This document shows, in pieces, positions 1 through 63,265 of a stretch of DNA of 63,265 nt (the stretch's first letter is position 1; every line of letters starts with the position of its first letter). The notes under the pieces are model-generated. The model did not search any database and had not been told where the DNA came from. It was given only the letters and a program-made list of their open reading frames with translations. Location: assembly GCA_018701105.1 (NCBI GenBank), contig JABIWD010000062.1, positions 1 to 63,265 of the forward strand, in the 5' to 3' direction. The position numbers were made by a program, and so were the translations under genes. This DNA is from Candidatus Uhrbacteria bacterium (GTDB lineage Bacteria; Patescibacteriota; Patescibacteriia; UBA9934; UBA11717).

Positions 1-267
1 GAACTTCTCGTCCGAGAGTCCGTGACGCACCATGAAACCGCACCCCTCCTTCGGATCGCCCCACTGCTCATCGTCGGGCCCATCTTCGGGCGCGTCGCTG
101 GGCAGATCGTCGAACCGCTCGTCGAGTTCGTCGTCGAGCTCACCGAGGAGCTCGTCCGACATCTCGGGGCTCTGGGCGATGCTCCGAAGCGGAGTCTCTG
201 AGTTGCAACCCAGGCTGAAGATGAACAGGAGAACGGAAACAATCCGCGAAATAACGATAGGCTTCAT
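1..267 (-). CDS. putative secreted lipoprotein, C-terminus beyond window edge
   Basis: Reverse-strand ATG at 267 gives MKPIVISRIVSVLLFIFSLGCNSETP..., a signal peptide plus SLGC lipobox, followed by a D/E-rich linker. The frame stays open to nt 1 and G/C-ending codons dominate. The + ORF 32..403 is its low-complexity antisense shadow. Confidence 0.55.
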   Translation of the reverse strand, partial: MKPIVISRIVSVLLFIFSLGCNSETPLRSIAQSPEMSDELLGELDDELDERFDDLPSDAPEDGPDDEQWGDPKEGCGFMVRHGLSDEKF

Positions 268-505
268 ACCCACTCCAGTACTCGACTGCCTACATGGCAA
301 TCGGTCATTTTTGACTCGTCAATATAGCACAAAAATGCTCCCTTGTCAAGATAGTAATGTGCAAATCCTACTGAGATTAGCCAAAATTTACAACCGCTCA
401 TAGTCACACTACAACTCTGTCATTGTTCACAATCCACTACCATATGAACACCCTGGGCAAGGCTGTTTTATTAATAAAGCTACCTAGACAACTTGCTATT
501 CAGCA

Positions 506-534
506 TTGTGAAAAAGCGCAAACAATGCTAAAAT
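506..534 (+). promoter_or_regulatory. candidate sigma70-type promoter for gyrB
   Basis: TTGTGA (506-511), 17 nt spacer, extended -10 TGCTAAAAT (526-534), about 30 nt upstream of the gyrB ATG. Confidence 0.4.
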
Positions 535-564
535 AGGGCCATTGTTAAGACTGTAAATGACAGT

Positions 565-2622
565 ATGCCTCCAAAGAAACCGGAAAAAAAGACAGCGGCA
601 AAGAAACCAGCGGCCAAGAAAAAGACTGCGAAAGGTAACTACGGTGCCGCGCAGATTCAAGTTCTTGAAGGACTAGACCCCGTTCGAAAACGCCCAGGAA
701 TGTACATCGGATCAACCGGAGAGTCCGGATTGCATCACCTGATTTGGGAGGTAGTAGACAACTCAATCGACGAAGCTATGGCCGGTCACGCTGACACGGT
801 CACTATTAAGTTGCTTCCAGATGGTTGGGCGAGCGTTACTGACAACGGTCGTGGTATCCCTGTGGACAACCACCCTCAGTACAAGGTGTCAGCCGTAGAG
901 CTTGTCTTGACCAAGCTGCATGCTGGTGGAAAATTCGGTGGAGACGATTCTGGATACAAGGTTTCTGGAGGACTTCATGGAGTTGGTGTTTCAGTCGTGA
1001 ACGCTCTGTCTTCAGAGTTGTGGGTAGAGGTTAACCGTGGAGGCAAGACCTACCATCAGGACTACAAGATTGGAAAGCCGCAGAATAAACTAAAGCCTAT
1101 CGGCAAGTCTAAGGAGACTGGGACCACTATCGCGTTTAAGGCCGACGCTTCTATATTCGAGACTGTCGAGTACGATCTTAAGACCATTCGAGATCGTCTG
1201 CGTCAACATGCGTACCTTACTCGTGGAATTAAACTCGTGATCGTAGACGAGCGTATAAAGGAGAAGTACTCCGAATACGCGTTCTACTTTGAAGGTGGAG
1301 TGTCGTCATTTGTTCGACACATGAACTTCGGAAAGAAAGCCAAGCACGATAACGTTTTGCATACTCGCAAAACTTCCGGTGATGTAGAAGTCGAGATTGC
1401 CATGCAGTACACGGAAGACTTCCACGAGAACGTAAACTGTTTTACAAACAACATCTTGAACCCAGAAGGCGGAACTCACCTCGCTGGATTCAAGACGGCC
1501 CTTACTCGTGTTCTGAATACGTACGGACGAGAGAAAGGTCACATTAAAGAGAAAGAAAACAACTTGACCGGTGACGATGTTCGAGAAGGACTCACCGCTG
1601 TTATCTCTTTGCGAATTCCAGAGCCTCAGTTTGAAGGTCAGACAAAGGCAAAGCTTGGAAACCCAGAAGCTCGAGGCGCTACGGAGTCTGTGTTTGCAGA
1701 TGCGCTCAAGACCTTCCTTGAAGAACATCCACGAGACGCAACATCGATCCTAGAAAAATCTCTCCTTGCCTCACGCGCAAGAATGGCTGCACGAGCTGCT
1801 AGAGATACTATTCTGCGAAAGGGCGCGCTCGAGGGCCTTACACTTCCTGGAAAGCTCGCTGATTGTGCAAGTCGCGATCCATCAAAGTCTGAGCTATACA
1901 TTGTTGAGGGAGACTCTGCTGGAGGTTCTGCCAAGCAAGGACGTGAACGAGAGTTCCAAGCCATCCTTCCATTGCGTGGAAAGATCCTGAACGTTGAACG
2001 TGCACGATTGGATAAGATGCTCACGAACAACGAAGTTAAGTCGCTTGTCATTGCGCTTGGAACCGGAATCGGTGATGACATCCACATGGACAAGTTGCGA
2101 TACGGACGAATCATCATCATGACCGACGCGGACGTAGACGGAGCTCACATTCGAACGCTCCTTCTTACACTGTTCTTCCGCTACTTCCCTGAACTGATTA
2201 GACAGGAGCACCTATTTATTGCACAGCCTCCTCTATTCAGAGTCCAGGTTGGCAAAGCCGTAGAGTACGCCTTTACCGAAGAGGATAAAGACAAGATCGT
2301 CGCGAGGATGACGAAGCCTACAAAGGGATCTAAACCCGTGAAGACGACCATCACTATCGACGAAGAGACGGGTGAAGAGATCGTTACAGTCGAAGGAGGC
2401 CGAAAGGTGAACCTCCAGCGATACAAGGGACTTGGAGAAATGAACCCGGACCAGCTGTGGGAAACAACCATGAACCCAGCGAACCGAGTCATGAAGCTCG
2501 TTACCATCGAAGACGCAGCAAAGGCAGACGAGGTGTTCGACACTTTAATGGGGACCGACGTGGCTCCACGAAAGCACTTCATCAGCACACACGCAAAGAG
2601 CGTGAAAAACCTAGATATATAA
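565..2622 (+). CDS. gyrB: DNA gyrase subunit B
   Basis: 685 aa. GHKL ATPase motifs ([27 protein letters not shown]), Toprim [26 protein letters not shown]. Carries about 25 extra Lys-rich residues at the N-terminus. Confidence 0.97.
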
Positions 2623-2630
2623 AAAAATGC

Positions 2631-2656
2631 CCCTCCGCAGCCCGCGGAGGGTTTTC
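2631..2656. terminator. intrinsic terminator between convergent gyrB and 2671..3360
   Basis: CCCTCCGC (2631-2638) pairs with GCGGAGGG (2644-2651), followed by TTTTCGTTT. An A-run lies on the other side. Confidence 0.7.
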
Positions 2657-2670
2657 GTTTGTTCGGCGCG

Positions 2671-3360
2671 CTAGAGCGTGCCGATTGCTTCCAGGAAGCC
2701 GGGGCCAAACGCGTGGCCGTCGCTCGCCCAAACAGTCAACTCGTCACCCTCCCACCGGACGTGATACACGCCAGAGTCACCTTCGAGCTGGTAATCCATG
2801 CCTCGCAGATTGGCCGGCAAGGCAATCGCTGGCGATCGGAACGGGGTCACTTCCATACGACTGACCCTCATGCGCTTGCCTTCAAGCAGCAATTCGATCT
2901 CCCGAACGTTGTCCGTCTGGTGGTCGATGTTCTCGACCATGTCCGCACTCTCAGCTCCCAAGTACTGCCTGCACATACGATCAACCGGTACTTGCAAAGC
3001 GCTCATGCGCACACCCGCGATCTTGTCGTGACCAGAGAGGATCTTCAACAAGAATGCGATGCCGCTGCTGCCGGACCACTTGCCATCCCCACCCGCAGGT
3101 CCGCCTGTCATCAGCGGCTTGATCCTCAAGCGGCCCTGAAACCACGCGACTGTGTAGCAAGTTCCGTAGAACTTGAACATCACGTAGTCAGGAGTAACGA
3201 CGAAGTTGAACGACGCGCCGAAGTACACCTTTGCCGCCTCGATCCTTGCGGTCAGCCCGGTGATGTCGCCTCTTCCGCGATGCACCTGAAGCAGCTCCAG
3301 GATCGGGGGACTCTCCGCGACTTCTTCTTCCTCTTCGACAACCAGATCGGCTTGCGCCAT
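2671..3360 (-). CDS. hypothetical protein (GC-rich orphan)
   Basis: I chose ATG at 3360 (M44 of the track ORF), preceded by GGAGAG. The protein MAQADLVVEEEEEVAESPP... has balanced composition. The same-boundary + ORF 2659..3378 starts at a TTG inside the gyrB terminator tail and is R/H-rich, so it is a shadow. Confidence 0.55.
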   Translation of the reverse strand: MAQADLVVEEEEEVAESPPILELLQVHRGRGDITGLTARIEAAKVYFGASFNFVVTPDYVMFKFYGTCYTVAWFQGRLRIKPLMTGGPAGGDGKWSGSSGIAFLLKILSGHDKIAGVRMSALQVPVDRMCRQYLGAESADMVENIDHQTDNVREIELLLEGKRMRVSRMEVTPFRSPAIALPANLRGMDYQLEGDSGVYHVRWEGDELTVWASDGHAFGPGFLEAIGTL

Positions 3361-62281: not shown

Positions 62282-62326
62282 TGGTATAAAAGATGCGATA
62301 TTAGTAGATGTGGATTGAAATAGAAA

Positions 62327-62364
62327 CATTTTCAATTTTGCAATTCGGCAATTTTCAATTGATT
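62327..62364. repeat. left 38-bp inverted repeat flanking the four-helix-bundle gene
   Basis: CATTTTCAATTTTGCAATTCGGCAATTTTCAATTGATT. It is the perfect reverse complement of 62804-62841. Confidence 0.9.
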
Positions 62365-62379
62365 ATTCGATTGGTTAAT

Positions 62380-62769
62380 TCATCGATTATCAATTTGACG
62401 AGGCGCTCTGCGCTTGGCCTTTTTGTTCCTCATGGTTTGTATTACTTTGCCAAATATCCTGGATAACTCGAGCGCTTCCTGTATAAGCTCCACCTGAATC
62501 TGCGCATTATCAACCTCCGCCACAATACACTTCAACCAGTATCTAGACTCCTTCGCTTCCTTTCTGCATATATTTATTCTGTAAAGAAAATCCTTTCCGC
62601 TAAACGATTCATTGGCCTCAATATAGTTCGCGCCAACCGATCCCGACGATCTGACCAACTGCTTAATATCTTCTTGATAAATCGAATGTCTCGGAATCAA
62701 CTTAACAAACTCTCTCACCTTCCGACTAAATGCCAAAGCCCTCTCCTCAAGCCCCTCTTGTTTTGTCAT
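62380..62769 (-). CDS. four-helix-bundle protein (23S rRNA intervening-sequence protein family)
   Basis: SSGSVGANYIEA, KDFLYRINICRKEAKESRYWL hallmark motifs. Start taken at ATG 62769, because the track TTG start at 62805 lies inside the inverted repeat. Confidence 0.85.
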   Translation of the reverse strand: MTKQEGLEERALAFSRKVREFVKLIPRHSIYQEDIKQLVRSSGSVGANYIEANESFSGKDFLYRINICRKEAKESRYWLKCIVAEVDNAQIQVELIQEALELSRIFGKVIQTMRNKKAKRRAPRQIDNR

Positions 62770-62803
62770 AGTTCTCGTTAATTGATCAATTGGTAAATTT
62801 CCC

Positions 62804-62841
62804 AATCAATTGAAAATTGCCGAATTGCAAAATTGAAAATG
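62804..62841. repeat. right 38-bp inverted repeat flanking the four-helix-bundle gene
   Basis: AATCAATTGAAAATTGCCGAATTGCAAAATTGAAAATG. Perfect partner of 62327-62364. Confidence 0.9.
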
Positions 62842-62890
62842 TGAATAAAGCTATGCGACACCCTGGAGCTTCCAGGATGTCGCATATCGT

Positions 62891-63265
62891 CTAGGGTATC
62901 GTCAGCCTCACGTCACACCCGCCTCCCCAGTCCTGCACGGTTGGCGCTCTCTGGATTCCGTTGATCCAGAACGAGCCGTAGACGTGCGAGGTGTCCGAGC
63001 CTGTGTGGGCGCAGATCCACCAGGGCGAGCCGGGGGTGTTGTTGGCTTCGTATTCGCCGTTCACGATGATCGACGTTCCTGAGCCTCCGGCGATTGTTCC
63101 GCAGAGCTGCGTGAACGATCCGCTGGAAGACGCAACGGTTTCCCAGCTGCCCTCTTGCACCCAGAGCTCGCCGTTGCGAGTACCGTTCAGGCCCTGCGTC
63201 GTCCAGCAGAGCTCGGCGAGGCCGTTCCCCACCGGATCATCATCATCGTCGTCGTCATCATCACC
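62891..63265 (-). CDS. GC-rich hypothetical protein, N-terminus beyond window edge (probably secreted)
   Basis: The frame is open from the window edge: GDDDDDDDDDPVGNGLAELCWTT...CGT...WWICAH...GGGCDVRLTIP-stop. It has a poly-Asp linker followed by a small Cys-containing domain. Confidence 0.55.
   Translation of the reverse strand, partial: GDDDDDDDDDPVGNGLAELCWTTQGLNGTRNGELWVQEGSWETVASSSGSFTQLCGTIAGGSGTSIIVNGEYEANNTPGSPWWICAHTGSDTSHVYGSFWINGIQRAPTVQDWGGGCDVRLTIP

Follow-up and report, generated by a model that had tools for sequence, protein, structure and literature searches.

Genes of atypical composition, morons, mixed leaderless and Shine-Dalgarno (SD) initiation, and hydrolases linked to type IV secretion systems (T4SSs) are all already known. 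Alien genes, or genomic islets, are gene-delimited outliers with unusual codons, many of them without homologs, that lie between conserved operons in slots whose content turns over among distant relatives. Phage morons are one-gene promoter/terminator units that sit between conserved genes and differ in composition from their surroundings. Genomes with mixed leaderless and SD initiation are found in Actinobacteria and Deinococcus and correspond to GeneMarkS-2 'group C' (PMC6028130). Peptidoglycan hydrolases are regular partners of monoderm-type T4SSs, and a Saccharibacterium cannot grow as an epibiont without the peptidase and lysozyme homologues beside virB4 (PMC12102498). Some features of each of these recur in or around ten open reading frames (ORFs), numbered cand1 to cand10 in their order along a 63,265-nucleotide stretch from a Candidatus Uhrbacteria bacterium (contig JABIWD010000062.1; the window). 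We regard it as close to an even call that the ten form a resident, maintained expression class of fast-evolving accessory genes in an Uhrbacteria-like Patescibacterium.

Gene starts for the compositional analysis were taken from gene calls of the longer source contig, which spans 929,237 bp and comes from JGI metagenome 3300072015. The window has an overall G+C content of 49.1%; total GC is 0.56-0.64 in the ten ORFs and at most 0.528 in all 48 other genes, with no overlap. GC at third codon positions (GC3) is 0.63-0.86 (mean 0.718) in the candidates vs. 0.513 ± 0.055 in the other genes (z = 2.1-6.3), which makes them codon-usage outliers within the window, and GC at first and second positions (GC1 and GC2) is likewise elevated. 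The disjoint ranges bear out the initial annotation, made from the letters and ORF translations, which had described the ten as GC-richer than the surrounding genes; its four hand counts of G+C per 60 nt (41, 36, 24, and 32) were exact. By GC3 alone, cand4 (6482-7201), cand5 (14764-15333), and cand9 (52468-53037), at z ~2.1-2.4, overlap secE (0.64) and thyA (0.62). C- and G-ending codons are preferred across all codon families. For cand7 (47949-48563), the description of nearly every Lys, Glu, Asp, and Ile codon as AAG, GAG, GAC, or ATC was too strong for the first three (4/6, 9/13, and 12/17, respectively) and held for Ile (10/10). Relative to the other genes, Lys is used at 0.39 times the frequency, Cys at twice, and Trp at 1.6 times, and Arg is enriched. 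In composition and codon use, the ten ORFs are thus atypical for the genome in the sense applied to alien genes.

The anomaly ends at gene boundaries. Spacers around the candidates have 38-48% GC, terminator stems excepted, and the 100 codons of flanking genes nearest each candidate show no rise in GC3 (0.487 vs. 0.525). At fourfold degenerate sites, the ribosomal-protein genes rplK and rplA and the gene for a 790-aa repeat protein lie at one extreme (GC 0.21-0.25, A/T preferred), the low-expression housekeeping genes dnaE, recG, miaA, thyA, and clpB lie at ~0.43-0.50, and the candidates lie at 0.55-0.87.

The candidates also share expression signals. A -35 box stands at the proper distance in all nine candidates whose 5' end is in the window. 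The pattern TTGACA-N16-18-TANNNT occurs eight times in the window against an expectation of 1.4 ± 1.25 (0/100 shuffles reached eight), and seven of these stand immediately in front of cand1, 3, 4, 5, 6, 7, and 8; the remaining match is upstream of secE, whose GC3 is the highest among non-candidate genes. Cand2 and cand9 have near-match -35 boxes (TTGACT and TTGACC). Candidate promoters are conserved at the orthologs in the comparison loci L001, L082, L088, L090, and L092. A GGAG-type SD core is found 4-10 nt before the start in 8/9 candidates, or 9/9 if cand3 starts at 4016 or 4019, and in 8/48 other genes (Fisher p = 3e-6 to 6e-5). Conversely, a near-consensus -10 box, mostly TG-extended, ends 3-13 nt before the start in 11/48 other genes (background 2.8%, p = 7e-8) and in 0/9 candidates. 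A -10 box so near the start is a signature of leaderless mRNA, and these core genes are predicted to be leaderless. Strong hairpin terminators close most candidate units. The insulation proposed in the initial annotation, with TTGACA-type promoters and hairpin terminators in lower-GC DNA, therefore stands, and each candidate is predicted to be transcribed separately, from its own consensus promoter through a leader and SD to a terminator.

As in genomes with mixed initiation, operon-first genes here have a -10 box near the start, and a second gene set has SD leaders. Unlike in those genomes, SD sites are nearly confined to a small, compositionally distinct, fast-evolving class, and operon-internal core genes are mostly without them. 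The literature searched did not yield any link of GC3 with initiation mode and promoter architecture. The window and the comparison loci contain no rRNA gene in which an anti-SD could be read.

The association was replicated in loci of related Uhrbacteria and Magasanikbacteria lying around T4SS, gyrB, or dcd genes, from which the window and its close relatives were excluded and in which ORFs were called crudely by a frame-aware survey. The median GC3 offset was +0.22 for genes with the promoter and 0.00 for those without; an offset above 0.15 was seen in 13/23 of the former and 53/1107 of the latter (Fisher p = 2e-11). An in-frame SD plus start was present in 28/65 GC3-high genes vs. 93/1033 others (p = 5e-12), and the out-of-frame motif, used as a control, was equally common in both (8% vs. 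6%). Many of the GC3-high genes in these loci encode acidic-linker lipoproteins or small membrane proteins.

The closest genomes by RecG (88% amino acid identity) and VirB4 (91%) are metagenome-assembled genomes labelled Candidatus Uhrbacteria, among them bin.195 (JABMPK01), UBA11717, and RIFCSPHIGHO2_02_FULL_53_13, which NCBI places in the Patescibacteria/Parcubacteria group. The window holds a PrgI/TraC-like/VirB4 cluster together with genes for a ComF-type phosphoribosyltransferase, RecG, and a RadA-like AAA_25 protein, and a T4SS with a comF/recG-type arrangement has been described for T4SS loci of the ABY1 class (PMC12102498). Because of this arrangement, the Saccharibacteria-like organism considered in the initial annotation gives way to an Uhrbacteria-like Patescibacterium, as RecG and VirB4 also indicate. 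Two comparison lineages were used most: a relative of ~89% average nucleotide identity (ANI; 86-90% nucleotide identity), represented by PVBE010564382.1 and ENA scaffolds (L081-L083, L088, and L089), and the bin.195 lineage. L090 and L091 were assigned to the latter on the strength of the identity between L091 and JABMPK010000048.

Housekeeping neighbours share 94-100% identity between the window and the ~89% ANI relative. Values are lower for cand2 (81% in L088, against 94-99% for housekeeping proteins), cand3 (55%), cand4 (78%), cand5 (78%), and cand6 (81% in L081-L083, against 100% for RseP), all of which occupy the same positions. In the comparison with bin.195, the range for housekeeping proteins is 74-97%, and the candidates fall to 42% for cand3, 48% for cand4, 54% for cand7 (54-63% for its ortholog in L001), 33% for cand8, and 59% for cand9. 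Nei-Gojobori dN/dS for cand2-6 is 0.14-0.33 (cand2, 0.26; cand5, 0.33) vs. 0.00-0.07 in most neighbours (up to 0.16), and reaches ~0.7 for cand7 and cand8 against bin.195. Protein evolution is 5-20 times faster in the candidates than in the adjacent genes. Of the nine ORFs that could be tested, eight (cand2-9) are syntenic in the ~89% ANI relative, bin.195, or both, and are thus conserved at the same positions at genus level; cand10 is syntenic at the family level. The adjacency of cand9 to the phosphoribosyltransferase gene is kept in L092 (59% identity) and in L003 and L095 (26%). By these comparisons of sequence and gene order, the candidates are vertically inherited within the genus, and the kinase (cand9) and the lipoprotein represented by cand10 are positionally conserved across family- and class-level relatives. 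Host-derived acquisition from Actinobacteria, raised in the initial annotation, is not supported: in searches that were deep for cand4, cand7, and cand8, no candidate tested has an actinobacterial relative, and cand2-9 are syntenic in relatives.

High GC3 persists in the orthologs, most of which have values of 0.63-0.81 vs. local medians of ~0.50-0.52. In L088, cand2-5 range from 0.63 to 0.73 (cand5, 0.73) with a locus median of ~0.52; cand6 in L082 has 0.69 and its neighbours 0.48-0.52; cand7 in L001 has 0.73-0.75 and recG 0.57; and cand8 in L092 has 0.81 and its neighbours 0.37-0.56. The cand9 ortholog of bin.195, at 0.56, is near local levels. Housekeeping dS between the window and bin.195 is ~1.4, at which a two-state decay toward 0.5 leaves a GC3 of at most ~0.70 from a start of 1.0; this simple ceiling, a rough bound rather than a fitted model, is surpassed by cand7 (0.86) and by the cand8 ortholog (0.81). 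When third-position changes were polarised with an outgroup, cand4 was balanced, with 23 changes from G/C to A/T (S>W) vs. 25 in the reverse direction (W>S), although the counts are few. We infer that the raised GC3 is probably not the fading scar of a recent transfer. The candidates appear to differ from alien genes in this respect, as the offset of most orthologs persists or grows past synonymous saturation, and they differ also in being GC-richer than the genome, where most alien genes are AT-richer, in being syntenic and vertical in the genus, and in that donors, mobility genes, and insertion scars were not found for them.

The longest record of such an offset comes from the family of cand10 (62891-63265, minus strand). 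The fragment shares 47% identity with the C-terminal domain of a 406-aa lipoprotein encoded in the corresponding place in L095 (3160-4380), which combines a Peptidase_M23 domain (Pfam, 52.5 bits vs. a cut-off of 28.7), a poly-Asp linker, and the C-terminal domain. The N-terminal part of cand10 lies outside the window, and the fragment aligns solely to the C-terminal domain of its homolog; by this alignment and its position, cand10 is the tail of an M23-peptidase lipoprotein. The gene lies ~6.5 kb upstream of the virB4 start, and 26 loci from genomes of ~39%-65% GC have an M23 homolog in this position. In 26/26 loci, the M23 gene is GC-richer than the median gene of the locus (mean GC offset, +0.116; mean GC3 offset, +0.226; minimum, +0.065), whereas other families of the T4SS cluster have median offsets of -0.01 to +0.05. 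Acidic low-complexity repeats were excluded as the source, since the catalytic domain is equally GC3-rich. M23 divergence correlates with VirB4 divergence (r = 0.70-0.75), and all close pairs are concordant, so descent is largely vertical; together with the uniform offset, this indicates a gene-specific upward synonymous bias kept through 26 lineages. M23 GC3 also moves with genome GC3 (r = 0.66), and an in-frame SD plus start is present in 13/16 M23 genes that have a recognisable lipobox.

Like the monoderm T4SS hydrolases PrgK and TraG (PMC12102498), the cand10 family places an M23 peptidase at the head of a PrgI/TraC/VirB4 cluster, a position that, by analogy, would fit a local cell-wall-opening or host-wall-attacking role. 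Unlike those hydrolases, it is a predicted lipoprotein in which long acidic linkers are combined with an uncharacterised C-terminal domain rich in Cys and Trp. Neither the consistent GC3 offset of the M23 gene nor a long-kept GC3 offset of any one gene family was found in the literature searched.

Homologue searches reached different depths for different candidates, with deep searches for cand4, cand7, and cand8 and comparisons with phages, plasmids, PDB, and family libraries for the others. Among 5.8 billion proteins, the sole relative of cand7 was its syntenic ortholog in L001 (bin.195). Cand4 had two relatives (78% and 48% identity), each syntenic; a profile search of 1.84 billion representatives added nothing beyond its own cluster and one spurious match, to a phage tape-measure protein (hhalign probability, 5%). 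A word-indexed search of the 5.8 billion proteins gave no homologue of cand8, for which tblastn identified a syntenic 148-aa ortholog in L092 (bin.195; 33% identity, GC3 0.81). None of the ten matched any of 50,697 phage records (tblastn) or 72,556 plasmids, and PHROG matches were confined to generic kinase families. Within these scopes, which differ per candidate, relatives outside the clade, including in Actinobacteria, were found for none of the candidates tested. An all-against-all BLASTP comparison returned nothing, so the ten are not mutual paralogs.

In Pfam, PHROGs, PADLOC, and NCBIfam, cand9 alone among the candidates gave matches, above curated cut-offs for AAA_18 (35.6 vs. 29.4) and AAA_33 (30.7 vs. 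27), and it carries the Walker A motif GYICAGKST. Its nearest structures are the AdkA-like UPF0200 proteins PDB 3lw7 and 3h0k (E = 2e-6), and no equivalog-level family match was found. When the candidates were joined end to end and compared with PDB, the kinase portion alone was matched. The statement that a P-loop kinase was the only recognisable family among the ten is therefore correct for direct library matches and fails for cand10, which is homologous to the M23 lipoprotein. AlphaFold models of cand4 (predicted local distance difference test score, 35; 3-sequence alignment) and cand7 (41.5; 2 sequences) were too poor to use. No integrase was present, no direct or inverted repeats flank the candidates in the window, and only cand7 is near a tRNA gene. 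The candidates differ from morons: they are not in a prophage, have housekeeping neighbours, have no PHROG, phage, or plasmid similarity, and are spread over at least 8 chromosomal gaps.

In the reading that we favour, each candidate would be a self-contained one-gene unit with a promoter, a leader with an SD, G/C-ending codons, and mostly a hairpin terminator, set among core operons with TG-extended -10 boxes, many leaderless starts, and few SD sites. The GC-rich synonymous composition would be held by a force tied to the gene or transcript, most likely selection linked to the mode of expression of this gene class. Translation could be SD-dependent and separately regulated, with codons opposite to the ribosomal-protein preference, which would throttle output or make it conditional on a particular state; alternatively, stable, GC-rich monocistronic mRNAs could be what is selected for. 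Selection on transcript or translation is what remains because regional causes and simple relaxation are both disfavoured, as set out below.

Several observations weigh against this reading. A cassette arriving from a GC-rich bacterium would have exactly this kind of promoter, SD, and codon use. The cand4 ortholog of bin.195 has a GC3 of 0.55, near its locus median of 0.53, and polarised changes in cand3 show, on few counts, the S>W excess that decay predicts (32 vs. 17). Cand1 is absent from the ~89% ANI relative, in which a 327-aa gene abuts gyrB, and in family-level relatives the candidate slots contain either no gene or different ones. This applies to the recG/tRNA slot of cand7 in L002 and L003 and to the rplA/dcd slot of cand4, in which L253 and L254 have no gene and L172 has a 238-aa ORF unrelated to cand4. 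Because slot contents vary, gene turnover, and hence gain, occurs. The replication loci are biased to T4SS neighbourhoods, and their ORF calls are crude. Finally, metatranscriptome runs of the same study hold nothing from the organism, matching only in conserved stretches of 30-50 nt that belong to other taxa.

The alternative that survives best is that the candidates are old horizontal cassettes from a GC-rich donor (host, plasmid, or virus), acquired as promoter-SD-gene-terminator units before the genus diversified, still ameliorating, and stripped of donor similarity by rapid protein evolution. We consider this possible, if on the unlikely side. The TTGACA/TAnnnT promoters, GGAGG SD sites, G/C-ending codons, and Lys-to-Arg shift do resemble those of GC-rich bacteria, and the gene-delimited anomaly, the turnover of slots in family-level relatives, the absence of cand1 from the nearest relative, the S>W excess in cand3, and the tRNA-Arg gene adjoining cand7 all fit an origin by insertion. 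Against it, no donor emerged from the protein, representative, phage, or plasmid searches, mobility genes and flanking repeats were not found, and synteny with relatives holds for eight of the nine ORFs that could be tested. GC3 is no lower in the orthologs and exceeds the decay bound for cand7 and cand8; the polarised changes in cand4 are balanced; and the M23 offset has been kept in 26/26 lineages, in which the family has diverged in step with VirB4. It would, moreover, be unparsimonious to invoke ten separate insertions, each of a single gene and all with the same promoter design.

A broader form of the resident-class reading is that ABY1-class Patescibacteria (Uhrbacteria, Magasanikbacteria, and relatives) run two gene-expression styles, the smaller of which is a conditionally translated regulon. 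We offer this tentatively and think it rather unlikely as a general rule. The bulk set would be leaderless or SD-less, with extended -10 promoters and ribosomal-protein genes using A/T at fourfold sites; the small class would be monocistronic and SD-dependent, with a consensus -35 box and GC-rich codons, and would be enriched in lipoproteins, the T4SS-associated M23 hydrolase, and lineage-specific orphans. It might switch on at host contact via ribosome state or the tRNA pool, with its GC-rich codon use kept by selection. The mycobacterial hypoxia regulon is reportedly a codon-biased regulon with transcripts tunable by tRNA modification. As in such regulons, a gene subset here uses synonymous codons opposite to the bulk, which could allow class-specific translation control; unlike in them, the bias extends to all codon families rather than a few codons.

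Relaxed codon selection offers a second alternative, in which mutational equilibrium is GC-rich and weakly expressed, weakly constrained genes drift toward it, while translational selection pulls most genes to A/T-ending codons. The ordering at fourfold sites is what it predicts, with ribosomal-protein genes and the 790-aa protein at the A/T extreme, candidates at the opposite one, and ordinary genes between, and the high dN/dS of the candidates and the shift of M23 GC3 with genome GC3 (r = 0.66) agree with it. The presumably low-expression genes recG, dnaE, and miaA, however, have fourfold GC of 0.43-0.48, well below the candidates, and other fast-evolving genes (pilin-like genes, hyp319, and UPF0259) are not GC-rich. 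Relaxation would also require selection of S ~1.3-2.2 on average genes, more than codon-bias surveys lead one to expect of slow-growing bacteria with small genomes, and consensus promoters with strong SD sites do not suggest weak expression. On balance, this explanation is improbable.

GC-biased gene conversion at recombination hot spots, where allele exchange under diversifying selection would lift local GC, is more doubtful still. Recombination has evidently been active: dS against the ~89% ANI relative varies ~60-fold along the window, from 0.04 to 2.7 (nusG, 0.04; rplK, 0.14; thyA, 0.70; dsbA, 1.65; pgm, 2.7), and its unevenness, for example between 4451-6258 and 7286-9306, indicates a recombination mosaic. 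Cand3 has a dS of 2.2, and this and the pgm value suggest replaced alleles; together with the spread of dS, they imply that homologous exchange is common in the lineage, which has competence and T4SS genes. Conversion nevertheless fails to account for the absence of any GC3 rise in flanking gene ends (0.487 vs. 0.525), the ordinary GC3 of the replaced pgm allele (0.51), and the coincidence of the edges with ORF ends. Because the edges are so sharp, any regional cause, whether the mutational environment or hot-spot conversion, is disfavoured.

A bolder variant of the two-style reading, in which the cassettes would be transferred through the T4SS and expressed in a GC-rich host, hence their host-type signals, is scarcely credible. 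Equally far-fetched is an artefact, with the ORFs being non-coding GC-rich DNA, mis-called frames, or assembly chimeras: GC-rich DNA does give long ORFs in several frames and the AlphaFold models are of low confidence, but the candidates show the coding pattern GC1 > GC2 << GC3 in their called frames, have an SD and start codon in place, and have orthologs that preserve length and frame with dN/dS <1 and, in most, a dominance of third-position changes. Chimerism was excluded by identical contig pieces spanning candidate/flank junctions in independent low-coverage runs and by the same candidate gene order in other assemblies. Judged on these features of the sequence, the ten ORFs are real coding genes.

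Atypical composition is routinely read as recent transfer, a shortcut that fails here, where the outliers are vertically inherited and one family has kept its GC offset across 26 related lineages. In the literature searched, no coupling of GC-rich codons with promoter and initiation type was found in a vertically inherited class. If the coupling that defines the proposed resident class were true genome-wide, it would mark a recognisable accessory/host-interface set in a group in which such genes are mostly unannotated, gene finders would have a reason to model two start-site styles, and there would be a handle on the force that maintains synonymous GC in bacteria, a long-standing question. An envelope or host-interface role is probable for the T4SS-associated M23 hydrolase, cand1, and the acidic lipoprotein-like cand7, in line with the initial suggestion that at least three of the ten looked secreted: cand1, cand7, and cand10 are all predicted to be secreted or lipoprotein-like. 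The M23 lipoprotein and the two acidic lipoprotein-like proteins are accordingly fast-evolving surface candidates for host recognition, and an effector/immunity repertoire is possible for the lipoproteins. Cand9 probably functions in nucleotide handling beside the ComF-like phosphoribosyltransferase, and six further small proteins, predicted to be cytoplasmic, are probably confined to the genus.

Cand1 (1-267, minus strand; GC3 0.78) comprises the first 89 codons of a predicted 264-aa acidic lipoprotein-like protein, its full length being taken from the source-contig gene calls. The N-terminus reads MKPIV...FSLGC followed by NSE and then a D/E-rich linker, and the promoter lies at 321-349 (minus strand; TTGACA-17-TATATT with a TG extension). 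A bidirectional GC-rich hairpin terminator (2631-2651) separates gyrB from cand2 (2671-3360, minus strand), which encodes a predicted 229-aa cytoplasmic orphan (GC3 ~0.71-0.73) with the SD GGAG and a promoter-like site at 3415-3443 (minus strand; TTGACT-17-TATCCT). Cand3 (3504-4019, minus strand; GC3 0.68) encodes an orphan of ~171 aa that starts at GTG 4019 or ATG 4016 behind an AAGGAG SD; its promoter is at 4049-4076 (minus strand; TTGACA-16-TACTCT), and a hairpin terminator follows its 3' end (3483-3497, minus strand). The starts at 3360 and 4016 given in the initial annotation are preferred over the longest-ORF starts because relatives carry upstream stop codons (in L088 for 3360).

Cand4 (6482-7201, plus strand; GC3 0.64) is a 239-aa orphan in the rplA/dcd gap, with a promoter at 6435-6463 (plus strand; TTGACA-17-TAATGT) that is kept in L088, the SD AGGAGGT, and a bidirectional hairpin terminator at 7226-7242. 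In the same gap lies one copy of a palindromic repeat family (GTCATCCTGAGGAGG..ACGTGAGGATCTCAT) that occurs as inverted or tandem pairs at 6272-6368, 33596-33698, and 44120-44213, in the rplA/cand4, lemA/htpX, and AAA_25/ThyX-like gaps, and that resembles repetitive extragenic palindromes or bacterial interspersed mosaic elements (REP/BIME-like). The nearby rplK/rplA gap contains a small membrane-protein gene with a faint DUF5671 match in L088 (8615-9037) and L253 (8859-9209) that is missing from the window, a variable slot in a conserved ribosomal-protein cluster.

Cand5 (14764-15333, minus strand) encodes a 189-aa orphan with GC3 0.65, a promoter at 15379-15407 (minus strand; TTGACA-17-TAAGTT; same sequence in L088), and a 3' hairpin terminator (14736-14751, minus strand). 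The 790-aa protein mentioned above (15482-17854, plus strand) has no Pfam match and contains ~82-aa repeats of the type (GY..NMGGMPAGGGREP). Its GC3 is 0.38, and because its fourfold codon use is like that of ribosomal-protein genes (A, 0.45; T, 0.32), it is suggested to be very abundant, structural or surface-located. Farther along, a gene between dnaE and its next neighbour (24990-25583, plus strand) encodes a 197-aa AAA_33/Zeta-toxin-like P-loop kinase with a mildly raised GC3 of 0.59; it is strain-variable, as L081 and L082 lack it and have a gap of just 144 nt there.

Cand6 (30638-31036, minus strand; GC3 0.75) is a 132-aa orphan with a promoter at 31092-31120 (minus strand; TTGACA-17-TAAGTT). 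Downstream of it is an AT-rich hairpin repeat (30535-30567, minus strand), one of three copies (also 8412-8462 and 45752-45802) of the element CAATTGGGCAAATTTCAATTTAT(G/T)GAAGTT, in which the hairpin is followed by a T-run; the copy at 45767-45796 scores as a terminator, and the element is conserved in L081-L083. The phosphoglucomutase gene nearby (pgm; 31498-32865, minus strand) encodes a protein 53.5% identical to its syntenic counterpart in the ~89% ANI relative (dS 2.7), with neighbours at 93-100%; it appears to be a xenologous allelic replacement of ordinary GC3.

Cand7 (47949-48563, plus strand) has the highest GC3 of the set (0.86) and encodes a 204-aa secreted or lipoprotein-like protein with a predicted signal peptide, an acidic linker, and a Cys-containing domain that appears β-rich. 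Its promoter (47874-47902, plus strand; TTGACA-17-TACGTT) is kept in L001, and its intrinsic terminator (48574-48632, plus strand) consists of a long hairpin followed by T7 (-32 kcal/mol, z = -4.5). The next ~317 nt (48633-48949) are absent from bin.195 and contain an 83-aa CxxC...CxxC zinc-ribbon-like ORF (48653-48904) and a strong terminator (48914-48938). Of the three tRNA genes in the window, that for tRNA-Arg with anticodon GCG (48984-49060, minus strand) hints that fourfold boxes are read by G34 tRNAs rather than by inosine, which bears on which codons are optimal in this organism.

Cand8 (51949-52395, plus strand; GC3 0.70) encodes a 148-aa orphan and is preceded by a promoter at 51822-51850 (plus strand; TTGACA-17-TACGTT) and a leader of ~90 nt. 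A hairpin terminator (52462-52480, minus strand) lies at its convergent end with cand9 (52468-53037, minus strand; GC3 0.63), which encodes a 189-aa P-loop nucleotide-kinase-like protein, has the SD AGGAGG, and is downstream of the ComF-type phosphoribosyltransferase gene.

Cand10 consists of the last 124 codons of the lipoprotein gene that heads the T4SS-like cluster (GC3 0.78), with a poly-Asp linker and a Cys/Trp-rich C-terminal domain, and is followed by a terminator with a 16-bp stem (62852-62886, minus strand). Between the M23 gene and the T4SS cluster, a gene at 62380-62805 (minus strand) encodes a 141-aa 23S-rRNA-intervening-sequence protein (PF05635; Avd-like four-helix bundle). It is flanked by 64-nt inverted repeats (62326-62389 and 62779-62842; 83% complementary), which are made up of AATTGAAAATTGCC motifs similar to the AT-rich hairpin element; the gene is AT-rich, with C in 18% of NNY codons, and has a counterpart in no related locus. 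From these features, it looks like an intervening-sequence-like or miniature mobile insertion. A diversity-generating retroelement, an idea that arose from the Avd-like gene, was rejected, as the window has neither a template/variable repeat pair nor a reverse transcriptase. Upstream of M23 in several related loci is a gene of ~93-106 aa (L104, ~500-778; L120, ~390-683; L153, 1028-1348; all minus strand) with a consensus promoter and a GC3 of 0.74-0.97 vs. medians of 0.40-0.57, and the L153 copy resembles a small membrane protein.

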